Source of the DNA: Candidatus Heimdallarchaeum aukensis
GTDB taxonomy: Archaea > Asgardarchaeota > Heimdallarchaeia > Heimdallarchaeales > Heimdallarchaeaceae
Length of the DNA: 64,000 nt
Assembly (NCBI GenBank): GCA_021513695.1
Contig: CP084166.1
Location: forward strand, 160,001 to 224,000
Direction: 5' to 3'
Every line of letters begins with the position of its first letter. Within the stretch, counting starts at the first letter, position 1. The position numbers were made by a program, and so were the translations under genes. Under the pieces are notes generated by a model, which saw only the letters and a program-made list of their open reading frames with translations, had not been told where the DNA came from and searched no databases. This document shows positions 9,209-48,793 of the stretch, in pieces.

Positions 9209-10174
9209 CTATTCTCCCAAATTTTTTCTCCAGTTGTAATCTTCTTTTGCTATCAGTGTAACAGCAGAATCTTCTTTTGAATCGATGATTTTTAATTCTG
9301 TATTTTCTATAATCTTCTTTGAAAATTCTAGTATTTTTGGGTACCTTGGCATTATTTCATAAGGTAACCTTTTTCTTGCGTCTCCAACACTCATAAAACC
9401 TTTTACTTCTAGAAAATGAGCTTCTGATCTTAAAAATAATTCAGCAAAAGCTTCTGGTTCGACTAAATTGTAGTTTTCATCTACTAAAGTTAATCTTATA
9501 ACTTTTCTAGTGTTAAGCGAAGGAAGTAATTCAATTGTTTCCATCACTTTGTTCCATAGATTTGAAAAAGAAGGACGAGCAGTTTTTTTGAAACTTTCTT
9601 CAGTAGGGGCAATTAGAGTAACATAGAGTTGAGTAGGAAGAGGGTCAAGTTTCTTCAACATTTCAGGATTAGTGCCATTAGTTACTAGAAAAGTAGTCAT
9701 ATCACGATTGTGGAACTCTTGAATTAATTCTGGTAACAAAGGATAGAAAGTTGGTTCTCCACTTAAAGAAATTGCAGCATGTTTTGGATTGTAAGCTTCT
9801 TCATATAATCTTGGTTCTACTTTTGGATGATTTTTGAATCCTGCAATTAGTCTTCTTTGATGTTCTATCATTTGATCAATAATATATTCCGGTTTGTCAA
9901 CTTTTCCTCTCATTAATTCTTTGTTGTACCATGATGCACTTCTCCAGCAAAAAACACATTTTAGATTACACCATATTGTTGCAGGAGTACATTGAAGACA
10001 ACGGTGAGAAGCTATTCCGTAAAATTGTTGTTTATAGCAAAAACCTTCTCCTTTTAACGCGTGCTTTAACCAGGTGCAAATTTTTACTGCAGAGTGATTA
10101 CCAGCTATTCTGTACTGTTGTTTTTCTAGTTTGTCTTTCAATTTTGGAGGAATAATGTTTGTATTTAAACTCAT
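9209..10174 (-). CDS. taw1: archaeal tRNA 4-demethylwyosine synthase Taw1 (radical SAM, TYW1 homologue), full-length copy
   Basis: Radical-SAM CxxxCxxC 'CNLKCVFCWR'; upstream auxiliary Cys cluster 'ICTWLK...GFCYKQQFYGIASHRCLQCTP', characteristic of TYW1/Taw1; ~320 aa as in archaeal Taw1. Confidence 0.7.
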   Translation of the reverse strand: MSLNTNIIPPKLKDKLEKQQYRIAGNHSAVKICTWLKHALKGEGFCYKQQFYGIASHRCLQCTPATIWCNLKCVFCWRSASWYNKELMRGKVDKPEYIIDQMIEHQRRLIAGFKNHPKVEPRLYEEAYNPKHAAISLSGEPTFYPLLPELIQEFHNRDMTTFLVTNGTNPEMLKKLDPLPTQLYVTLIAPTEESFKKTARPSFSNLWNKVMETIELLPSLNTRKVIRLTLVDENYNLVEPEAFAELFLRSEAHFLEVKGFMSVGDARKRLPYEIMPRYPKILEFSKKIIENTELKIIDSKEDSAVTLIAKEDYNWRKNLGE

Positions 10175-10301
10175 TAGATTTACTTATTTTTCTTTATTTT
10201 TAGACTTTATCTTTATTGAAATTTTTTTTGATTAAATTTACTATAAAATTAACAAAGGAAAACAATAGATTAAAATATTTAAAAAATTAAAATATACTGA
10301 T

Positions 10302-11417
10302 ATGGTTAGTATTAAAAAAGTTCTCAAGCAACTAGAAGATTCTGATCCTATAGTTCGAAGAGATGCAATACTTACTCTTGGAGAACTAAAAGACGAAAAA
10401 GGGGTTGATCCTTTAATTAAGTGTGTTCAACAAGAAATAAAAGAAAATAGAATCACCGCTATTGTTGCACTTTCAGATATTGGAGATCATAGGGCTATTG
10501 AAATATTAATCTACTGTTTAATGGATGATGATGAAGAAATAAGACTTGCTGCTGCTCGAGCTTTAGGACGATTTACTTCTCCTCAAGCTATCACTACTTT
10601 ACTTGTTTCATTAAAAAAAGACCCAAGTGTGAGAGTTAAGAGTCGTGCAGCTCTATCTTTAGGGAGTATTGGTTCAGAACTGCCTGTTGAAGAATTACTT
10701 AAAGAATCTAAATTAGAACACCCAACCACTCTTCTTTATTCTATAAATTCTGCTTTGACAATGATAGCAAAGAAAAATGGTTATAGTTCAGTAGATGAAC
10801 TTGTTCAAAAAATAAGGGCTAAAAAGGCAGAAGTAGATGAGAAAACACCAGAGCATAAACAAATTCAGGAGAAAGAAGAGCTCGAATCTTTTCCTCGTTT
10901 ATATGACTACATTAGAAAATATGTAGCTCGAGAACTAGAAGGGGTACAAACAGTATTAAGTATTAACTCAGATGAAAAGACTGCATCAAAGAAAATAGCT
11001 GATATTTTAGCAGAAAAATTCTGGAAATTTGCTGAATGGATCGGAAAAAGAATGGGACATAAATTAACTGAATATCAATCTGATTTGCTCTGGCAGATGA
11101 TATGGGATACATCAAGGCCAATTAGAAATGAAATTTACCAAATGATAAGAGATCATCGCTCAGAATTAGAGGAATTAAATCGATTCCAGAAATGGCTCAA
11201 CAAAATAGAAGAACAAAAAGAAGAAGAAATCGTTAAAGATATTGAAAGAAGCAGACCTAAACCCATTATTCAAACTTCAAATAATGTGAAAAAAGACGAA
11301 GCAGAGACAATTAGAGCTGCAGATTTGGCAAGAAGTATTTCTTCAAATCTTGAAGAAATAATGGGCAAATATTCTAGTTGGAAAACAAGAGAGTTAAAAG
11401 ATGAAGAAGATTATTAA
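10302..11417 (+). CDS. HEAT (PBS-lyase type) repeat protein, copy 1
   Basis: Repeated 'D..VRR.A...LG' HEAT units in the N-terminal third ('DSDPIVRRDAILTLGEL', 'DEEIRLAAARALGRF', 'DPSVRVKSRAALSLGSIG'). Confidence 0.55.
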   Translation: MVSIKKVLKQLEDSDPIVRRDAILTLGELKDEKGVDPLIKCVQQEIKENRITAIVALSDIGDHRAIEILIYCLMDDDEEIRLAAARALGRFTSPQAITTLLVSLKKDPSVRVKSRAALSLGSIGSELPVEELLKESKLEHPTTLLYSINSALTMIAKKNGYSSVDELVQKIRAKKAEVDEKTPEHKQIQEKEELESFPRLYDYIRKYVARELEGVQTVLSINSDEKTASKKIADILAEKFWKFAEWIGKRMGHKLTEYQSDLLWQMIWDTSRPIRNEIYQMIRDHRSELEELNRFQKWLNKIEEQKEEEIVKDIERSRPKPIIQTSNNVKKDEAETIRAADLARSISSNLEEIMGKYSSWKTRELKDEEDY

Positions 11418-11569
11418 GCTTCTTTAAAATTCTGAAAATTGCCAAAAAAATTTTTCTAAAACAATTTTTTATTATTTATTAATTTTCGTAATACCTTGCT
11501 AATACTAAATCCTTCACGACAAAAACATATTTATTTCTGTTTACAATTGTGATATAGTAGATATCTAAG

Positions 11570-11779
11570 ATGGAATATGGGGTTAATATGAAAAAAAAGC
11601 TGATTACATTTAAAGTAACAGAAGCTATGATGAAATGGATAGCAGAAATGATGGAAAAGGGGAATTATAAAAATAGAACAGAATTAATTGTAGATGCTCT
11701 TAGAGAGTTTCTCATCCAAGAAAGAATGGTTGAAGATCAGGAAGAACTAGAAGCAATTTTTGAAAGAATTGATGAATAG
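11570..11779 (+). CDS. ribbon-helix-helix (CopG/Arc/MetJ-like) small DNA-binding protein, copy 1
   Basis: 69 aa; beta-strand 'KLITFKVTEAM' followed by two helices ending 'NRTELIVDALREFL', the typical RHH pattern. Confidence 0.5.
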   Translation: MEYGVNMKKKLITFKVTEAMMKWIAEMMEKGNYKNRTELIVDALREFLIQERMVEDQEELEAIFERIDE

Positions 11780-11821
11780 TTCTCTTATAACTCCTTCTGT
11801 ATTTCTGTTATTTTAGCCCTA

Positions 11822-12628
11822 TTATTCAAACCAATACATAGATGTTTTTTCGAAACATTCTTTTGTTAAATTTTGTGAAAGCTTAAAATAATTAGTAACT
11901 TTTTTATCTATCCTTTTTCTGAAAATCACTGCTTGATTAAAATCTCTATCTGATTTTATCCAGTTTTTTGTAATTTCTTTCATTGTTACCCAGATATCAG
12001 AGGAAGGAAAAGGGATTGGTATCTCTCTAAAAAGGTTTGAAGTTATGTCTCTTACAATAAAACTTTCTACTATAAATTGAACAAATGAGGAGGAAAGATA
12101 ACCAAACAACCCATAAAGGTCTATTTGTTCATCAGGAATTATGATGTCAAAAATGTCGTTTACGTAATAGCCTTCTAGGTCCAAACCAATAAAATACTTC
12201 TTTCCTCTATTTCTACGGACTATTTTTGGTTTTTCAAATATTTGATGATCTCCTGGTGCTCCTAATACTTTTCTGTCATAAATTATTTTTTCTTTTCCTG
12301 GAAAAACTTCAAAGTTTATGACACCTTCTTTGTAATTATTTGAAAAGATATTGTGTCTTACTATTTCTACAGATTTAATTTCATTTGAATATTTCTTTTT
12401 TTTAATATACTTCTCTTTGTATCTCTTTGTTATCGTTAATCCTCGTCTAATAAAAGAATGTTCTTTTAATTTAGGGTAATTATTCAGGATAGTGCTGATT
12501 TCCTTTTGACTTTCAGAACTAAAATTTGAAAAAAGAAAAAGAGGAGGGAAAATGAAGCTATAGTCTATTTTGTGTTCATGATTATCTTTTCTTTTATGAA
12601 ATTTAATGTAATTACTTTCGTTTTTTAA
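11822..12628 (-). pseudogene. 3' fragment (C-terminal ~269 codons) of the N6-adenine DNA methyltransferase gene, created by the tandem duplication
   Basis: Identical by eye to 15170-15976, the C-terminal part of the 663-aa MTase. It lacks the N-terminal catalytic motifs and any upstream start. The ORF track reports only the last 120 codons, from an internal TTG. Confidence 0.7.
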
Positions 12629-13524
12629 AAATCGATGATTTTTAATTCTGTATTTTCTATAATCTTCTTTGAAAATTCTAGTATTTTTGGGTACCTTGGC
12701 ATTATTTCATAAGGTAACCTTTTTCTTGCGTCTCCAACACTCATAAAACCTTTTACTTCTAGAAAATGAGCTTCTGATCTTAAAAATAATTCAGCAAAAG
12801 CTTCTGGTTCGACTAAATTGTAGTTTTCATCTACTAAAGTTAATCTTATAACTTTTCTAGTGTTAAGCGAAGGAAGTAATTCAATTGTTTCCATCACTTT
12901 GTTCCATAGATTTGAAAAAGAAGGACGAGCAGTTTTTTTGAAACTTTCTTCAGTAGGGGCAATTAGAGTAACATAGAGTTGAGTAGGAAGAGGGTCAAGT
13001 TTCTTCAACATTTCAGGATTAGTGCCATTAGTTACTAGAAAAGTAGTCATATCACGATTGTGGAACTCTTGAATTAATTCTGGTAACAAAGGATAGAAAG
13101 TTGGTTCTCCACTTAAAGAAATTGCAGCATGTTTTGGATTGTAAGCTTCTTCATATAATCTTGGTTCTACTTTTGGATGATTTTTGAATCCTGCAATTAG
13201 TCTTCTTTGATGTTCTATCATTTGATCAATAATATATTCCGGTTTGTCAACTTTTCCTCTCATTAATTCTTTGTTGTACCATGATGCACTTCTCCAGCAA
13301 AAAACACATTTTAGATTACACCATATTGTTGCAGGAGTACATTGAAGACAACGGTGAGAAGCTATTCCGTAAAATTGTTGTTTATAGCAAAAACCTTCTC
13401 CTTTTAACGCGTGCTTTAACCAGGTGCAAATTTTTACTGCAGAGTGATTACCAGCTATTCTGTACTGTTGTTTTTCTAGTTTGTCTTTCAATTTTGGAGG
13501 AATAATGTTTGTATTTAAACTCAT
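12625..13524 (-). CDS. taw1: Taw1 copy 2, 3'-truncated by the duplication junction (C-terminal ~24 aa replaced by 'F' then stop)
   Basis: Identical to 9283-10174 over its length. The protein ends '...LKIIDF' instead of '...LKIIDSKEDSAVTLIAKEDYNWRKNLGE'. Confidence 0.6.
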   Translation of the reverse strand: MSLNTNIIPPKLKDKLEKQQYRIAGNHSAVKICTWLKHALKGEGFCYKQQFYGIASHRCLQCTPATIWCNLKCVFCWRSASWYNKELMRGKVDKPEYIIDQMIEHQRRLIAGFKNHPKVEPRLYEEAYNPKHAAISLSGEPTFYPLLPELIQEFHNRDMTTFLVTNGTNPEMLKKLDPLPTQLYVTLIAPTEESFKKTARPSFSNLWNKVMETIELLPSLNTRKVIRLTLVDENYNLVEPEAFAELFLRSEAHFLEVKGFMSVGDARKRLPYEIMPRYPKILEFSKKIIENTELKIIDF

Positions 13525-13649
13525 TAGATTTACTTATTTTCTTTATTTTTAGACTTTATCTTTATTGAAATTTTTTTGATTAAATTTACTATAAAATTAA
13601 CAAAGGAAAACAATAGATTAAAATATTTAAAAAATTAAAATATACTGAT

Positions 13650-14765
13650 ATGGTTAGTATTAAAAAAGTTCTCAAGCAACTAGAAGATTCTGATCCTATA
13701 GTTCGAAGAGATGCAATACTTACTCTTGGAGAACTAAAAGACGAAAAAGGGGTTGATCCTTTAATTAAGTGTGTTCAACAAGAAATAAAAGAAAATAGAA
13801 TCACCGCTATTGTTGCACTTTCAGATATTGGAGATCATAGGGCTATTGAAATATTAATCTACTGTTTAATGGATGATGATGAAGAAATAAGACTTGCTGC
13901 TGCTCGAGCTTTAGGACGATTTACTTCTCCTCAAGCTATCACTACTTTACTTGTTTCATTAAAAAAAGACCCAAGTGTGAGAGTTAAGAGTCGTGCAGCT
14001 CTATCTTTAGGGAGTATTGGTTCAGAACTGCCTGTTGAAGAATTACTTAAAGAATCTAAATTAGAACACCCAACCACTCTTCTTTATTCTATAAATTCTG
14101 CTTTGACAATGATAGCAAAGAAAAATGGTTATAGTTCAGTAGATGAACTTGTTCAAAAAATAAGGGCTAAAAAGGCAGAAGTAGATGAGAAAACACCAGA
14201 GCATAAACAAATTCAGGAGAAAGAAGAGCTCGAATCTTTTCCTCGTTTATATGACTACATTAGAAAATATGTAGCTCGAGAACTAGAAGGGGTACAAACA
14301 GTATTAAGTATTAACTCAGATGAAAAGACTGCATCAAAGAAAATAGCTGATATTTTAGCAGAAAAATTCTGGAAATTTGCTGAATGGATCGGAAAAAGAA
14401 TGGGACATAAATTAACTGAATATCAATCTGATTTGCTCTGGCAGATGATATGGGATACATCAAGGCCAATTAGAAATGAAATTTACCAAATGATAAGAGA
14501 TCATCGCTCAGAATTAGAGGAATTAAATCGATTCCAGAAATGGCTCAACAAAATAGAAGAACAAAAAGAAGAAGAAATCGTTAAAGATATTGAAAGAAGC
14601 AGACCTAAACCCATTATTCAAACTTCAAATAATGTGAAAAAAGACGAAGCAGAGACAATTAGAGCTGCAGATTTGGCAAGAAGTATTTCTTCAAATCTTG
14701 AAGAAATAATGGGCAAATATTCTAGTTGGAAAACAAGAGAGTTAAAAGATGAAGAAGATTATTAA
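13650..14765 (+). CDS. HEAT repeat protein, copy 2 (identical to 10302-11417)
   Basis: The 371-aa translation is identical to copy 1. Confidence 0.55.
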   Translation: MVSIKKVLKQLEDSDPIVRRDAILTLGELKDEKGVDPLIKCVQQEIKENRITAIVALSDIGDHRAIEILIYCLMDDDEEIRLAAARALGRFTSPQAITTLLVSLKKDPSVRVKSRAALSLGSIGSELPVEELLKESKLEHPTTLLYSINSALTMIAKKNGYSSVDELVQKIRAKKAEVDEKTPEHKQIQEKEELESFPRLYDYIRKYVARELEGVQTVLSINSDEKTASKKIADILAEKFWKFAEWIGKRMGHKLTEYQSDLLWQMIWDTSRPIRNEIYQMIRDHRSELEELNRFQKWLNKIEEQKEEEIVKDIERSRPKPIIQTSNNVKKDEAETIRAADLARSISSNLEEIMGKYSSWKTRELKDEEDY

Positions 14766-14917
14766 GCTTCTTTAAAATTCTGAAAATTGCCAAAAAAATT
14801 TTTCTAAAACAATTTTTTATTATTTATTAATTTTCGTAATACCTTGCTAATACTAAATCCTTCACGACAAAAACATATTTATTTCTGTTTACAATTGTGA
14901 TATAGTAGATATCTAAG

Positions 14918-15127
14918 ATGGAATATGGGGTTAATATGAAAAAAAAGCTGATTACATTTAAAGTAACAGAAGCTATGATGAAATGGATAGCAGAAATGAT
15001 GGAAAAGGGGAATTATAAAAATAGAACAGAATTAATTGTAGATGCTCTTAGAGAGTTTCTCATCCAAGAAAGAATGGTTGAAGATCAGGAAGAACTAGAA
15101 GCAATTTTTGAAAGAATTGATGAATAG
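14918..15127 (+). CDS. RHH small DNA-binding protein, copy 2
   Basis: Identical to 11570-11779; convergent with, and 42 bp from, the 3' end of the MTase gene. Confidence 0.5.
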   Translation: MEYGVNMKKKLITFKVTEAMMKWIAEMMEKGNYKNRTELIVDALREFLIQERMVEDQEELEAIFERIDE

Positions 15128-15169
15128 TTCTCTTATAACTCCTTCTGTATTTCTGTTATTTTAGCCCTA

Positions 15170-17161
15170 TTATTCAAACCAATACATAGATGTTTTTTCG
15201 AAACATTCTTTTGTTAAATTTTGTGAAAGCTTAAAATAATTAGTAACTTTTTTATCTATCCTTTTTCTGAAAATCACTGCTTGATTAAAATCTCTATCTG
15301 ATTTTATCCAGTTTTTTGTAATTTCTTTCATTGTTACCCAGATATCAGAGGAAGGAAAAGGGATTGGTATCTCTCTAAAAAGGTTTGAAGTTATGTCTCT
15401 TACAATAAAACTTTCTACTATAAATTGAACAAATGAGGAGGAAAGATAACCAAACAACCCATAAAGGTCTATTTGTTCATCAGGAATTATGATGTCAAAA
15501 ATGTCGTTTACGTAATAGCCTTCTAGGTCCAAACCAATAAAATACTTCTTTCCTCTATTTCTACGGACTATTTTTGGTTTTTCAAATATTTGATGATCTC
15601 CTGGTGCTCCTAATACTTTTCTGTCATAAATTATTTTTTCTTTTCCTGGAAAAACTTCAAAGTTTATGACACCTTCTTTGTAATTATTTGAAAAGATATT
15701 GTGTCTTACTATTTCTACAGATTTAATTTCATTTGAATATTTCTTTTTTTTAATATACTTCTCTTTGTATCTCTTTGTTATCGTTAATCCTCGTCTAATA
15801 AAAGAATGTTCTTTTAATTTAGGGTAATTATTCAGGATAGTGCTGATTTCCTTTTGACTTTCAGAACTAAAATTTGAAAAAAGAAAAAGAGGAGGGAAAA
15901 TGAAGCTATAGTCTATTTTGTGTTCATGATTATCTTTTCTTTTATGAAATTTAATGTAATTACTTTCGTTTTTTAAATCCATTGATAACAAAAAGAATTC
16001 ATTGGAAACGTCTTTAAAGGAATAATCTAAATCTGTGTAAATTTCTACATCATATCTATTATCTTTGAGGTGTTTTCTCCATTTCTTGCCATAAGTATCA
16101 GTTATGATACCTGAAGGTAATATTAATCCTACTTTCTCTTTGGATAAACTTTCTGCAATGATCAAAAAAGGTAGAGCAAAATTATATTTTCCAAAGATTC
16201 TATTTTTATAAGGTTCTCTCTTTAAGAATTCTTTATATCTATTATTTATTTTTTTATATTCTATCCACGGTGGATTTCCAATAACAAAATCAAAAAATTT
16301 TTTCTGAAGACTTAAACTTTCATCAAAAAATATTTCAGGCAAATCAACAAAAAAGCTAAATTTGGATAGAGAAGGATATTTCTTCGATATTTCATCTCTT
16401 TTTGTTAAACATTCTTTTATATCTTGAAAAGAAATTTCTTTTTTACCAAATATCACTTCTCTTCTTTTTTCACGAAGTATCGCTAAAAGTTTCAAAAAAG
16501 TTGTATTTTTTCTTTCTGACATTTGCTTTATTATTCTTTCATCATAACCAAGAATGCTATCTCCGTATTTTGAGATTAAAGGAAGTAATTTTCTTTTTCT
16601 ATTATCTTGTAACATGAAAAAGAGTTTGAAAACTTGAAATTCATAAATAAATGGATCAACTTCAACTGAATATGGCATAATCTCTTGTTTTTCAAAAGCT
16701 GGGTAGAGAAAATCTCCTATTCCTGAAGAAATATCGATAACTGTTTTAGTTTTTTTAGAATTGTTACTCAAAATATCTAATAAATCATATACCTTTTTAA
16801 CAAGAATCCTATTAGTAAAATATTGACCTGTTAATCTCGTTTTATCTTGAATAAGTGATAAAATATTAACTTCATTTATTGTCTTGATTATATTTTTGAT
16901 TTGTTCAAAAACCCAAACTGGTAACTTTTTTTCTAGAACTCTGAGTTTTTCTAACGATAGAAGTATTTGCTTATCATCTTGATTTAGATTAACCAGATTT
17001 ATTAACGAAGTTTTTTGTTGATTTTGTTCAGATGAAAAGGATGAAGAATTGTAAATAAAGTAAAACTTTACTATCATCGATTTTAATTCATTAACTGAAA
17101 CTTTGTACCTACTAGCCTTTTTCTGAATTCTACTATGTAGATTTTCCTCTTTTATTTCCAT
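15170..17161 (-). CDS. gamma-class N6-adenine DNA methyltransferase with a large C-terminal target-recognition region (no nuclease domain seen)
   Basis: Motif X 'GQYFTNRILV'; motif I 'VIDISSGIGDFL'; motif IV 'FVIGNPPWIEY' (NPPW). The order X-I-IV indicates gamma class; ~360 aa follow motif IV. Confidence 0.75.
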   Translation of the reverse strand: MEIKEENLHSRIQKKASRYKVSVNELKSMIVKFYFIYNSSSFSSEQNQQKTSLINLVNLNQDDKQILLSLEKLRVLEKKLPVWVFEQIKNIIKTINEVNILSLIQDKTRLTGQYFTNRILVKKVYDLLDILSNNSKKTKTVIDISSGIGDFLYPAFEKQEIMPYSVEVDPFIYEFQVFKLFFMLQDNRKRKLLPLISKYGDSILGYDERIIKQMSERKNTTFLKLLAILREKRREVIFGKKEISFQDIKECLTKRDEISKKYPSLSKFSFFVDLPEIFFDESLSLQKKFFDFVIGNPPWIEYKKINNRYKEFLKREPYKNRIFGKYNFALPFLIIAESLSKEKVGLILPSGIITDTYGKKWRKHLKDNRYDVEIYTDLDYSFKDVSNEFFLLSMDLKNESNYIKFHKRKDNHEHKIDYSFIFPPLFLFSNFSSESQKEISTILNNYPKLKEHSFIRRGLTITKRYKEKYIKKKKYSNEIKSVEIVRHNIFSNNYKEGVINFEVFPGKEKIIYDRKVLGAPGDHQIFEKPKIVRRNRGKKYFIGLDLEGYYVNDIFDIIIPDEQIDLYGLFGYLSSSFVQFIVESFIVRDITSNLFREIPIPFPSSDIWVTMKEITKNWIKSDRDFNQAVIFRKRIDKKVTNYFKLSQNLTKECFEKTSMYWFE

Positions 17162-23625: not shown

Positions 23626-23809
23626 ATGACTTATTTTTTTACGTAAGTTTGTAAAAATTGAGGGAGAATTGAATGTAAAAAAAGAAAAAGGAAAGGAGGA
23701 AGGGAGTGGAAAGGAAAATGATGGCTTTTTATAGGGAAAAAAAGTATAAGTAAGTAAGAAGAGAAGAAGAAAACCAAAGAAAGAGAAAATAGAAGGAGAA
23801 AAGAAAGAG

Positions 23810-25255
23810 ATGGAGGCCGTCGTCAAAACCTTGAAAGTGAGAATAAAGAATGAGGTATTGACGACAAGGAAGAAGGAAAGGTTAAGGAGAATAACAGGAA
23901 GAGATACGAGAATAATAGAAAAGTATGTGAGAATAATACACCAAAATAGAAAAAAAATATGTATAAGAACTAAAAAAGGGAAAATAAGAGTACATAGAGG
24001 AAAATTAGACGATTTAACATTAACTACTTCAAGAGTAAAAGAAGAAGAGAGGAGAAAGACTTTTCCTCACGACCTTAAGAAAATGTTCCCCTATTGTTCT
24101 CACAATGAGTTTCAAGAGTGTAGAGATATAGCTGTACAACTATATAAACAATGGTATAGACCTAACACCACTCGTCCTCCAATAAAGAGAGCGAGAAGAC
24201 AACTAATTAATGGAAAGAGGTTCATCCTCATCCATCTACCAAAAGAAAAGAATAACACTCTCACTCGTTGGTGGGTAGGAATAAGAGACTCGTTAGACAC
24301 TTGGAAAAGAAATACCCCCTATCATCAGAAGTTGTGGTTACCTTTAGAGATGAGCGATTTCCACCAGAAAGAGTTAAAAAAAGGACAGATAAAAGGTCTA
24401 GAACTGCGATACAAACGTTCTACAAGTGAGTGGTGGGTATATTTTCAACTAAAAGTTCTTCCTCCTTCTTCTTTTCTAAGCGATAATTCCTCTTCTTCTC
24501 TTCCTCCAGCTGTGCTGGGAATAGATCTGGGGATAAACATTCCTGCTGCAGGAGTGTTACTAACCCCTAAAAAGAAGTTAACTATTAAACAGATAAAATT
24601 CTAGTATACCAAACAGTGGAATATAATCAATCATAGATATAAACTCAAACTTTCCCGTCTTCAGAGGAAAGCGGCTTTAAACGACCAGTCGGGTAAAAAA
24701 CACCAAGTTTATCGTTTTCTTGGTCTTCTTCGTCGGAGATATAGAAACGTTAAACTGGCGTATATCCACCAATTTGTAAACGATGTTGTGCGGACAATAG
24801 AGACTTATGCACAAGTGTATGACCTTTTCGTCGTCGTAGGTTATCCTAAACATATCCGTGAAGAGAAAGGAAAAGGGAAAGTTTCTCGTCAATTTCGCAG
24901 AAAACTTCATCAGTGGAACTATGCTCTTGTTCTTGGTCTTCTCCGTCGGGCATTAATATTAAGAGGTTTCGAATCTCACCGTATTCTCACTTTAGACGAA
25001 AGAGGAACATCCTCTCACTGTTCTCGTTGTGGAACGAAAGTCTCTCGCCCTGTCAGAGGGTTAATCTCTTGTTCTTCTTGTAATTACACTTTCCACTCTG
25101 ACCTCACAGGAGCAATGAATATCGCTCGAAGGTTCCTTGGTCATCTTTTCCGTCCTCGTGCAACAACTATTACTGACCACCTTACTGGCTATAAATTCAG
25201 TCTCACCCATTTCACTGTTTGCCAAGGGCTCAGCCATTGGTTGCAGTCCCAGTAG
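23810..25255 (+). pseudogene. tnpB: tnpB-like (OrfB) RNA-guided-nuclease-family gene; single reading frame interrupted only by one in-frame TAG at 24602-24604
   Basis: N-terminal 'KTLKVRIKNEVLTTRKKERLRRITG' (TnpB helix-turn-helix-like start); RuvC-I 'LGIDLGINIPAAGV'; 'LDERGTSSHCSRCG...CSSCNYTFHSDLTGAMNIARR' (Zn finger plus RuvC-III). Starts 23810 and 24788 differ by 978 = 3x326. I translated 24605-24787 and found it open in the same frame. Confidence 0.75.
24602..24604 (+). other. in-frame amber (TAG) codon inside the tnpB-like frame
   Basis: '...ata aaa ttc TAG tat acc aaa cag tgg...'; it is the only stop in 1446 nt. Confidence 0.8.
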
Positions 25256-25527
25256 ACAAAAAAAGAAACTAATTACTCTTATCTTTGAGGATAGTTATCT
25301 TTTTTTGTCTCTCGTGGAGCGAAGAAAAAGTTCCTTTCTTCTTTATGATTCCCACGATTCGTGTATGATGTCTGTCTCAACCCCTTCTTTCATTGTATGC
25401 TCTGGTTGAGTTCGCAAGAGATCAAACTCTCTTCTAGTTTTTTCTCTTGAAAGACTGAGTGCGAAAAACTTACGTAAAAAAGTAAATCATGAAAAAGAGT
25501 TAAAATCTTCTTTGTTTTTTTTTTGAT

Positions 25528-33111: not shown

Positions 33112-33690
33112 TTATTTACTTGGTAAAAATGATTCAAGAGAATGGTTCTTTATATGTTGAATTATAGAATTCTTTGTATCAAAAGTTTCTTTACAAATTT
33201 TACATACGAAAATCTTCTTTTCTTGAATATAATCCCCAAAATTTATAACTATAAATTCTGATTTGAAACTTGATTCTTTTTCTAGATTATTCACAACATT
33301 ACTACAGATTTCATTTTTTGTATTTAATAGGTCAGGTGGGAAATCTAAAGTATCTTCATTTTCTTTAAGATAATCTTCGACTTTTTTTGAGAAATCTCTG
33401 GGAAAATACCATTTATTACCCTTTCTCTCAACAAATTTTTTTAGAAAGTAGTTTATTCTGTTATATAAATTAACCCATGAAGGATGCTGTGAAGCCCCCA
33501 GAAATGATTCAAATTGGCCATATGCTATATATCGAGCAATCGTAGATGTGTCTATTGCTACTGGTTGCCAATCTGCTTTATTCTCAAAATGCTTGAATGA
33601 TTCCACTGCGTCAACTATAGATTTTAGCAAATTTACCTTATCGATATCAAAATTCGCTTCTGTATGTGATGACCCTTTTTCACTAATCAT
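33112..33690 (-). CDS. C2H2 zinc-finger protein
   Basis: C-terminal 'FVCKICKETFDTKNSIIQHIKNH', a canonical Cx2Cx12Hx3H. Confidence 0.5.
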   Translation of the reverse strand: MISEKGSSHTEANFDIDKVNLLKSIVDAVESFKHFENKADWQPVAIDTSTIARYIAYGQFESFLGASQHPSWVNLYNRINYFLKKFVERKGNKWYFPRDFSKKVEDYLKENEDTLDFPPDLLNTKNEICSNVVNNLEKESSFKSEFIVINFGDYIQEKKIFVCKICKETFDTKNSIIQHIKNHSLESFLPSK

Positions 33691-46867: not shown

Positions 46868-47833
46868 ATGATAAGAACAGAGCAAGAGAATAAAGCTAGA
46901 ATTGTGTGTTCAGAGTGTGGAGAAAGTAATTTTGTTGAAACTGTTTCAGATGTTGTTTGTAGAAATTGTGGTCTTGTAATTGATCAAAGATACAGTTCAG
47001 ATCATTTTGTTGAAAATGATTCCACAGATTGGAGAAAAAAACGTTTTGGTAGTCCTGAAAGTAGAAGAAGTAAAAATACATATTTTTCATCTTTTGAAGT
47101 TTCTCCAGGAGAAAGCAGAGCACAATTTCAGAGAATGTGGTTTGCTGAAAAAAAGTTGGAATATGATGCAATAGAAGAGAACAAGTCAAGATTATTAAAT
47201 ATTCTAACAAAATTAGGCTTTTCTTCTAATCAAAAAAACCAAATAATGTATGAATTAAGAAAGCGATATGAAGCTGAAAAAAGAGCAGGTAACAAAGTAT
47301 CAAACATTTTCCTATTAGCTTCAGCGTTAGCAATTATTTTTTCAAAAAACCTTAATATTCCAGTGAGTATTCGTACTGTAGTTGATGTTTTTAAAAGCTA
47401 TGGCTGTAAAATTAGCTCAAAAGCAGTTAGAGATTATATCATTTCAAACAATTTGGCTTATACCAATTCATCTACAAGTGTTTGGGTAACAAAACATATG
47501 GCAACCTTGAGGTCTGATTTGTCGATTAGAGAGCAAATAAGGCAAGAATTACAAAATGTTGGAGACTCGTTAGAAATAACTGAACTAGATATAGACAAAA
47601 TCTTGACTTCAATTGAACTATTTGCAGTTAAACTTTCCAAAATTGAAGCCAAAAGCAGACGTCCTAGTGTTCTAAGTGTAGCATGTATATTCCTTGCTTC
47701 AGAGATGATAGCTGAAAAGATTAATATTACATTATTTAACCAAGCTTTTTTGGCAAGAACTTGCAAAGTTAGTCCTGCGACATTACGAAGTCACTTAATC
47801 TATCTGAGAAGTAACATAAAAACAAAGATTTAG
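46868..47833 (+). CDS. tfb: transcription initiation factor TFB (TFIIB homologue)
   Basis: N-terminal Zn ribbon 'CSECGESNF...CRNCGLV'; two cyclin-like repeats; 321 aa. Confidence 0.8.
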   Translation: MIRTEQENKARIVCSECGESNFVETVSDVVCRNCGLVIDQRYSSDHFVENDSTDWRKKRFGSPESRRSKNTYFSSFEVSPGESRAQFQRMWFAEKKLEYDAIEENKSRLLNILTKLGFSSNQKNQIMYELRKRYEAEKRAGNKVSNIFLLASALAIIFSKNLNIPVSIRTVVDVFKSYGCKISSKAVRDYIISNNLAYTNSSTSVWVTKHMATLRSDLSIREQIRQELQNVGDSLEITELDIDKILTSIELFAVKLSKIEAKSRRPSVLSVACIFLASEMIAEKINITLFNQAFLARTCKVSPATLRSHLIYLRSNIKTKI

Positions 47834-47863: not shown

Positions 47864-48793
47864 ATGTTCACAACTTCAAGAGTTATGGTATTATCTCCCA
47901 CAACATTATTTTTGATTTCTATAATTGCTCTAGTCGTTGGTATTTTAAGTGTGATTGCAGGATTAGGTGGTGGGGTATTTATAGTTCCTATCTTAACTGT
48001 TTTATTTAAATATGAGATGCCTATTGTTGTTGGAACAACTTTAGCTTCAACTACATTTATTTCTCTAGTTGGGGTAATAGGTGCAAGAAAAAGAAAAGAA
48101 ATTGATTTTAAATTTGCTTTCGCATTTTTGATTCCTGCCACGATATCAACTTTTTTTGGAGCTCTAATTACAGATATGATTCCTGAAATTATTTTACTCT
48201 CAATATTGTTTTCTTTAGCTCTGTTATTAAGTATTAGGATGCTACTTGAGTCAAGAAAAAAGAAAAAACTTGGAATAAAGACTTATAGACGAGATAAAAT
48301 ACAAGAATTAAAAAAAGAAAAGAAAGAACAAGAAGAACATAGTCATAAAATAGCTTTTTTCGCAAGGTTTCATTATCCTTGGTTAAGACCTTTTATAACT
48401 ATCAAAAGAGATGAATACGAGTTCAAAATAAGTATACCAGTAATAATTGTATTTGGTTTATTAATTGGTTTTATCACTGGGCTTTTAGGATCATCTGGAG
48501 GATGGCTTATATCTCCGTTAATGATCTTAGGATTTGGTTATACTCCTATTGTAGCTTCTGGTACTTCTCTTTTTATCATTCTAATTAAAGCAATTGTAGG
48601 AGGTACAACTCATGTTATACAAGGTCATTTTGATATGATTCTGTTTTTTGTATTATCTGTATTTTTACCGATTGGGGGTTTTATTGGAGATTTAATAAAA
48701 AGACGTATGAAAAATAGAATAGTTGGTTTAATATTAGGATTTTGTCTGTTGGGTGTTTCTGCTGTAATACTTGTGTTCTATTTCATTCTTTAA
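47864..48793 (+). CDS. TSUP/TauE-SafE family (sulfite/organosulfonate exporter-type) membrane protein
   Basis: Two four-helix repeats separated by a K/E-rich loop; Gly-rich helices ('AGLGGGVFIVP', 'LGSSGGWLISP'). Confidence 0.55.
   Translation: MFTTSRVMVLSPTTLFLISIIALVVGILSVIAGLGGGVFIVPILTVLFKYEMPIVVGTTLASTTFISLVGVIGARKRKEIDFKFAFAFLIPATISTFFGALITDMIPEIILLSILFSLALLLSIRMLLESRKKKKLGIKTYRRDKIQELKKEKKEQEEHSHKIAFFARFHYPWLRPFITIKRDEYEFKISIPVIIVFGLLIGFITGLLGSSGGWLISPLMILGFGYTPIVASGTSLFIILIKAIVGGTTHVIQGHFDMILFFVLSVFLPIGGFIGDLIKRRMKNRIVGLILGFCLLGVSAVILVFYFIL

Follow-up and report, generated by a model that had tools for sequence, protein, structure and literature searches.

An in-frame TAG in tnpB of a multi-copy Heimdallarchaeum insertion element most probably reflects a recent nonsense mutation in a single copy

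Introduction

Several branches of TnpB, almost solely archaeal, have lost the RuvC-II motif's catalytic glutamate to a glycine and carry a compensating glutamate instead, in an arrangement that is RuvX-like (Altae-Tran et al. 2023, PMC10691335). All Fanzors and the proteins termed "TnpB2" similarly have an alternative glutamate ~45 residues downstream, and this rearranged site can be catalytic: the substitution E467A abolishes cleavage by ApmFanzor, and the rearranged TnpB of Thermoplasma volcanium, TvTnpB, is an active nuclease that depends on a target-adjacent motif (TAM) (Jiang et al. 2023, PMC10530073). Here, we analyse a tnpB gene with a similar predicted active site in a 64,000-nucleotide stretch of the Candidatus Heimdallarchaeum aukensis genome (contig CP084166.1; hereafter the window, with coordinates counted from its first letter). 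The gene occupies positions 23810-25255 of the forward strand within a tnpB-only insertion element of ~1.87 kb, and its reading frame is broken by one in-frame TAG.

The elements that carry tnpB genes differ at their ends. Those of the IS200/IS605 group, including ISDra2 and the IS1341-type tnpB-only elements, end in asymmetric subterminal hairpins, and TvTnpB itself belongs to an IS605-type element that also has a Y1 TnpA (PMC10530073). Symmetrical inverted-repeat ends have been reported for TnpB elements associated with DDE transposases (Altae-Tran et al. 2023). Inactivated TnpBs that have been exapted also exist (PMC10691335). As to in-frame UAG codons, archaea that recode them as pyrrolysine include Sifarchaeia, and a survey of the Asgard lineages found the pyrrolysine machinery solely in that class (PMC9723677).

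The first-pass annotation of the window had offered three explanations for the TAG, namely a very recent nonsense mutation, a sequencing error, or amber read-through or recoding, and had raised the possibility of a nuclease-dead TnpB-derived regulator. Our comparison with orthologous and paralogous copies gives strong grounds for the first of these: the window very probably holds an ordinary young pseudogene, a recent nonsense mutation having struck one decaying copy of a multi-copy tnpB-only element.

Results

One tnpB reading frame with a single internal stop

Translation of 23810-25255 (+) gives 482 codons with an internal stop count of one. Codon 265 is TAG (24602-24604, +) in the context ...LTIKQIKF*YTKQWNIINHRYKL..., the open reading frames (ORFs) 23810-24604 and 24788-25255 share a common frame, and the intervening 24605-24787 contains no stop. 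The translation thus bears out both the 482-codon frame with its lone TAG and the open intervening segment that the first-pass annotation had described. The window has a G+C content of 30.4%, at which stops are expected at ~8.2% of random codons, and the 217 open codons 3' of the TAG have a chance probability of ~9e-9 at this base composition. The frame beyond the TAG is therefore not a chance one. The NCBIfam guided_TnpB profile aligns to residues 140-441, spanning the stop, with E = 3.7e-23 and a score of 82 bits that lies below the curated cut-off of 100 bits, and the Pfam family Cas12f1-like_TNB aligns to residues 392-438 with 37.4 bits, above its cut-off of 26.3. Because homology continues over the TAG, 23810-25255 can be read as a single gene.

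The stop divides this gene unequally with respect to function. Codons 1-264 (23810-24601, +) encode an N-terminal WED/REC-like part and the first RuvC strands, including the RuvC-I aspartate D239 (GAT, 24524-24526, +). Codons 266-481 and the normal stop (24605-25255, +) lie downstream of the TAG and would go untranslated from the upstream start; they include a glycine codon, G344, at the canonical RuvC-II position (GGT, 24839-24841, +), an alternative glutamate, E397 (GAA, 24998-25000, +), a CxxC...CxxC zinc finger (25019-25081, +) and the RuvC-III aspartate D431 (GAC, 25100-25102, +). D239, D431 and the four cysteines of the finger are invariant in 58/58 homologs, the set that makes up the family profile and alignment and to which the invariance counts refer throughout. 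The motif positions confirm that, as had been noted, the N-terminal part extends past RuvC-I but does not reach the zinc finger or RuvC-III, and E397 is missing from the product as well. By the standard of an intact ORF the window copy is consequently broken, whereas its closest relative, described below, has all RuvC motifs in one polypeptide. In GenBank, codons 1-264 appear as an identical 264-aa hypothetical protein, K9W45_00690 (P0014), of Ca. H. aukensis on a 3.08-Mb contig; an exact-sequence search with this N-terminal product (window, P0014) matched no contig on record.

The TAG arose from a conserved tryptophan codon

A protein search returned an intact protein of 481 aa (P0001), from Heimdallarchaeaceae metagenome contigs, that is 99% identical to the read-through sequence over its full length. 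It is encoded on two Joint Genome Institute (JGI) contigs, L001 and L002, on which tnpB has the same neighbours as in the window: upstream, genes for TPR, Oxidored_FMN and Inositol_P proteins, and PHP, sulfotransferase, EamA, PAC2 and other genes downstream. Nucleotide identity between these contigs and the window is 98.4-98.6% across 14-21 kb. The common neighbours and this level of identity indicate that the insertion on the two contigs is the one in the window, present in a closely related population.

When the three sequences are aligned, position 24603 is A in the window and G in both L001 and L002, so that TAG stands opposite TGG. All ten full-length paralogous DNA copies from the Ca. 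H. endolithica chromosome (L003-L012) likewise have TGG at the aligned codon. TGG is thus present in 12/12 other DNA copies (L001, L002, L003-L012), and the in-frame UAG is not conserved. Close protein homologs, truncated database entries included, all have W at residue 265; across 57 homologs this residue is W, F or I, apart from one V and one L, with F or I in the distant ones. In an AlphaFold2 (AF2) model of P0001 (predicted local distance difference test score, pLDDT, 82.7), residue 265 ends the strand 262-265, after the RuvC-I strands and before helix 268-290. The TAG arose in one step, by a G-to-A change in the codon of a conserved tryptophan of the hydrophobic core. A very recent nonsense mutation is supported by the TGG codons of the orthologous locus and of every paralog, and by the single transition between TGG and TAG.

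Further copies of the codon were sought in metagenomes. Contigs scanned for the 33-nt stretch around it, in either the TAG or the TGG form, gave no match; L001 and L002 do carry this pattern, so the collection is evidently without their samples. A metagenome scan with the conserved 3' RNA motif of the element (described below) retrieved four short contigs with the C-terminal part of tnpB only, which are uninformative on codon 265, and the same motif had no match in viral contigs.

Selection and decay of this copy

Between the window and L002, tnpB differs at 7 codons, of which 0 are synonymous. In ten flanking genes the same comparison gives 71 synonymous versus 40 non-synonymous codon differences, and the contrast with tnpB is significant (Fisher p = 0.0012). 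Five of the 7 differences depart from the family consensus in the window copy (E68D, V85F, E113K, E261Q and W265*); those at residues 356 and 409 apparently arose on the other lineage or are not polarisable. V85, which the window copy has replaced with F, is invariant in 58/58 aligned homologs. The non-synonymous excess fits neutrality, with a resident copy that would be drifting without purifying selection, as is usual for a single insertion-sequence copy. The earlier view that the gene is not a frameshift-decayed relic accordingly holds in part: it contains no frameshifts, yet V85F falls at an invariant site and 7/7 differences are non-synonymous.

Decay is common among the relatives of this gene. 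At 5/11 H. endolithica loci tnpB is frameshifted, stopped by a TAA or truncated: the gene is disrupted by frameshifts or deletions in L006 and L012, by two frameshifts in L009 and by a frameshift together with a TAA in L011, and L013 retains a 3' fragment only. Database fragments include P0019, with an internal deletion of the zinc finger, P0012, with an N-terminal deletion, and P0018 and P0047, with frameshifted tails. The window copy shares none of these lesions. Two H. endolithica copies, L008 (2938-2940) and L009 (2945-2947), show a CAG to TAG change close to the end of tnpB, three codons ahead of its usual stop (SHWL*PQ and SHWL*SQ); this late TAG removes three residues and is probably harmless.

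A relocated catalytic glutamate in the family

The first-pass annotation could place no canonical RuvC-II glutamate, and in this it was correct. An alignment of the family profile with AsCas12f (PDB 8j3r) sets the family's "...lfvavGYpknir" opposite "tIQMEDLTNIR", with G344 at the position of the catalytic glutamate, and the window sequence there reads ..FVVVGYPKHI.., without a glutamate. G344 is present in 57/58 homologs, so the loss of the canonical residue is family-wide. E397 (...LDERGTSSHC...) is invariant in 58/58; it lies 53 residues past G344, stands directly ahead of the CxxC zinc finger and, in the AF2 model, follows directly after strand 392-396, the next beta-strand.

The family profile matches Cas12f and TnpB chains in the PDB with E down to 8e-20; a single-sequence search of the PDB gave weak zinc-finger matches only. 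The top Foldseek matches of the P0001 model are AsCas12f (E = 9e-15), ISDra2 TnpB (8h1j, 1.6e-11) and Fanzor2 (9b0l, 5e-11), each with probability 1.00 and over the full length. On these profile and predicted-fold comparisons, the family is assigned to the TnpB/Cas12 superfamily, and the putative pairing of G344 with E397 matches the published "rearranged RuvC-II" class of TnpBs and Fanzors. As in TnpB2, TvTnpB, the RIIr branches and the Fanzors, glycine stands in for the RuvC-II glutamate with an alternative glutamate downstream, the aspartates of RuvC-I and RuvC-III are conserved, and the model fits the folds of Cas12f, TnpB and Fanzor2. Unlike those proteins, the window copy is interrupted by a stop.

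The insertion element and its family

Paralog similarity limits and a pair of inverted repeats delimit the whole tnpB-only element at about 23626-25491 (+). It sits between an inositol-monophosphatase-like gene (stop 23623-25), immediately past whose stop codon it begins, and a PHP-domain gene (start 25528). Similarity to 10-11 H. endolithica paralog copies runs from ~23635-23780 to 25491-25498, with unrelated sequence on either side; in most copies similarity begins ~130-185 bp upstream of the ATG, and it ends ~240 bp past the stop. The left terminal inverted repeat (TIR), ATGACTTATTTTTTTACGTAAGTTT (23626-23650, +), is 25 nt long and 92% complementary to the right one, AAACTTACGTAAAAAAGTAAATCAT (25466-25490, +), after which a G at 25491 completes the CATG of the paralogs. 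The inverted repeats of the family can be written CATG...TTTTTTACGTAA. Paralogous TIRs are 23-31 nt long and of the form CATG...CATG, for example at 1352-1374 and 3185-3207 in L005 and at 1348-1378 and 3158-3188 in L010. No target-site duplication was found beyond the CATG termini in 10 copies; CATG is palindromic, so a duplication inside it would be indistinguishable from a piece of the inverted repeat. Subterminal hairpins of the IS200/IS605 type, judged by eye, were unconvincing at either end and were rejected.

Two non-coding features accompany tnpB. A TTTTTATA box at 23725-23732 (+), ~80 nt upstream of the ATG, is a candidate archaeal TATA promoter element; it lies within a block, CTTTTTATAGGGAAAAAA, that is conserved among the paralogs in a leader that is otherwise variable and purine-rich, and from this position we infer a promoter role. 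Downstream, 25256-25490 (+) is a conserved non-coding region that may start inside the last tnpB codons. It is strongly conserved across 12 copies, and its RNAalifold consensus has 79 predicted pairs, with compensatory changes at 7. In this structure 98% of cells are paired versus 39-50% with the partners slid, and compensatory cells number 25 against 11.1 +/- 2.5 in shuffles, a value above every one of 500 shuffles. The region therefore resembles an omega-RNA (reRNA) scaffold reaching the right end of the element, for which it is a candidate. For the 3' region Rfam gave no family match; the sole hit, to a plant microRNA family, was sub-threshold, fell in the upstream gene and is put down to chance. 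The non-coding parts of the element with the adjoining spacer (23626-23809 and 25256-25527; 456 bp) show 0 differences from the two orthologous contigs; tnpB for comparison has 7, all non-synonymous, and in the flanking genes the rate is 2-30 per kb. The difference is a hint, not significant against tnpB's own rate, that the ends and the RNA region are constrained.

The family is abundant in this genus. Clusters at 90% hold 31 members for Ca. H. endolithica and 18 for Ca. H. aukensis (P0009), the full-length proteins of the multi-copy set are 82-87% identical to the window read-through sequence, and distant homologs (30-50% identity) occur in other Heimdallarchaeota and in Thorarchaeota. No transposase was among the genes called around tnpB in L001, L002 and the loci of two distant homologs (L018 and L019), and in the window and L003-L012 the element extends ~150-185 bp upstream and ~240 bp downstream of tnpB, leaving no space for a second gene. 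A DDE transposase beside tnpB was found at none of the 14 loci whose flanks were examined (window, L001, L003-L012, L018 and L019).

In having a single tnpB, a conserved 3' region of ~235 nt with a predicted structure that reaches the right end, many copies, many of them decayed, and no adjacent transposase gene, these elements are like the tnpB-only members of IS200/IS605. They differ in their inverted repeats of 25-31 nt, CATG...CATG, where IS200/IS605 ends are asymmetric, and in the relocation of the catalytic glutamate; the symmetrical repeats also set them apart from the element of TvTnpB. Symmetrical TIRs and a tnpB 3' end <=~250 bp from the element end are instead features of the DDE-associated TnpB elements (for example the IS630-linked DDE-6 branch), from which the Heimdallarchaeum family differs in that the 14 loci carry no DDE transposase beside tnpB. 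By analogy, the mobilising enzyme may be of the DDE type.

Other observations in the window

Positions 9280-12629 and 12630-15977 form a 3,350-bp tandem duplication with 99.94% identity. It leaves shortened second copies of a radical-SAM/wyosine gene (12625-13524, -) and of an Eco57I-like restriction/methylase gene (11822-12706, -), and the JGI contig behind L001 ends within the repeat. The duplication could be real or an artefact of long-read scaffolding. Elsewhere, a 192-aa ORF without a Pfam match (33112-33690, -) differs from the orthologous contigs at 99/579 columns, or 171 per kb, whereas nearby genes differ at 2-30 per kb. This ORF is a hypervariable or replaced allele.

Discussion

Altogether, our results provide strong support for a model in which a recent nonsense mutation has disabled one decaying copy of a multi-copy Heimdallarchaeum element. 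Several points weigh against this model. A consensus error or a minority allele at 24603 is formally possible, low-level natural read-through of UAG is compatible with the sequence, and the negative result for a suppressor tRNA covers the 64-kb window out of the complete H. aukensis genome. The count of 7 to 0 is small and is compatible with neutrality, of which it is no proof, and the disabling lesions number one, plus one substitution at an invariant site.

Two rival explanations concern whether the TAG exists and whether it is read as a stop. If the TAG were an error of sequencing or assembly, the true genome would have TGG and the gene would be intact; the difference is a single base, the orthologous contigs read TGG, and the element belongs to a repeat family, at which metagenome consensus calling can be disturbed. 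However, the genome was assembled with SPAdes from Illumina PE150 reads, with Nanopore used for scaffolding only (Wu et al., PMC8813620), and the site lies outside any homopolymer. The window copy has 81-85% nucleotide identity to the H. endolithica paralogs and 82% protein identity to P0009, the main cluster of H. aukensis paralogs, so cross-mapping of reads is not expected. It also has 6 further real-looking differences from the ortholog, its flanks differ by 1-2%, and 24603 is just one among the 318 alignment columns that differ over 14.4 kb between two distinct populations, which makes true divergence far more probable than a consensus error. We infer that the mutation is real and consider a base-calling error improbable. 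Programmed amber read-through or recoding, by pyrrolysine or a suppressor tRNA, would instead yield a full-length TnpB, and in its favour the frame is otherwise clean, without a frameshift, and one Asgard class, Sifarchaeia, does encode the pyrrolysine (Pyl) system, yet often uses UAG as a stop (PMC9723677). The likeness to pyrrolysine recoding consists in an in-frame UAG within an otherwise intact gene and in nothing else. No homolog has a stop at codon 265, where the residue is W, F or I, as is ordinary for a hydrophobic or aromatic position of the core, rather than one of a pyrrolysine-type site; the gene is not a methylamine methyltransferase; and the tryptophan ancestry of the codon makes recoding unneeded as an explanation. 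Among 55 long stop-to-stop frames of the window, 16 (29%) end in TAG, 28 in TAA and 11 in TGA, and the TAG-ending genes hold complete C-terminal domains before the TAG (Wyosine_form, for instance, at positions 2-63 of 63), so TAG is an ordinary, frequent stop here. An in-frame TAG divides no second gene of the window: the ORFs 46868-47833 and 47864-48793, which lie in one frame with a TAG between, were considered as such a gene and rejected, the downstream ORF being a complete TauE (positions 3-235 of 237). No tRNA gene and no Pyl machinery was found in the 64-kb window, and among Asgard lineages the Pyl system has been reported solely in Sifarchaeia (PMC9723677). Recoding, which the first-pass annotation had listed as an option, is left with hardly any probability.

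The other rivals concern what the gene product does. One possibility is that TnpB, in this truncated copy or throughout the family, has lost its nuclease activity and been exapted as an RNA-guided regulator. The absence of the canonical RuvC-II glutamate, with G344 in nearly every homolog, the precedent of inactivated, exapted TnpBs (PMC10691335), and the identity of the element's non-coding ends between the window and its orthologs would all fit this idea. Yet D239, E397, D431 and the zinc-finger cysteines are invariant, and a glycine at RuvC-II with a glutamate ~45-53 residues downstream is the published rearranged site, active in TvTnpB and ApmFanzor (PMC10530073; PMC10691335). With TIRs and many copies at unrelated sites, the family is mobile and not domesticated, and the stop is confined to the window copy, which shows no purifying selection. 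The rearranged site and the multi-copy, mobile distribution argue against a nuclease-dead regulator, a proposal that our data do not indicate and that we regard as very unlikely. We attach an equally slight probability to a leaky UAG, with near-cognate Trp or Gln read-through or an unrecognised suppressor giving a little full-length TnpB of the rearranged-site kind, or to the 264-aa fragment serving as an omega-RNA-binding, nuclease-free modulator of the genome's intact paralogs.

Under the nonsense-mutation model, we envision a scenario that starts from a resident copy of the multi-copy, tnpB-only element. A G-to-A transition at 24603 would have converted the conserved Trp265 codon from TGG to TAG, and translation would then end after RuvC-I, giving a 264-aa product without Glu397, the zinc finger and RuvC-III. 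The window copy would make no functional RNA-guided nuclease, a loss of function predicted from the motifs beyond the stop, and the resulting pseudogene would drift without purifying selection. Given an intact promoter-like box, inverted repeats and 3' RNA region, and non-coding ends equal to those of the ortholog, transcription may persist and the element might still be mobilised in trans. By the same token, the 3' RNA of the window element is conceivably usable by paralogous TnpBs.

The implications of this work are mainly negative. The in-frame TAG is not to be counted as a case of stop-codon reassignment among the Heimdallarchaeia, of all archaea the group nearest to eukaryotes, and the tnpB copy likewise gives no evidence for a domesticated, nuclease-dead TnpB in these organisms. 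Two by-products may be of modest use. Judging from its alignment, the Heimdallarchaeum tnpB family appears to bear a Fanzor-like relocated catalytic glutamate, a rearranged active site that is itself already in the literature, and the elements of the family are bounded by terminal inverted repeats and not by ends of the IS605 type. These two points bear on the diversification of TnpB elements near the archaeal-eukaryotic boundary.

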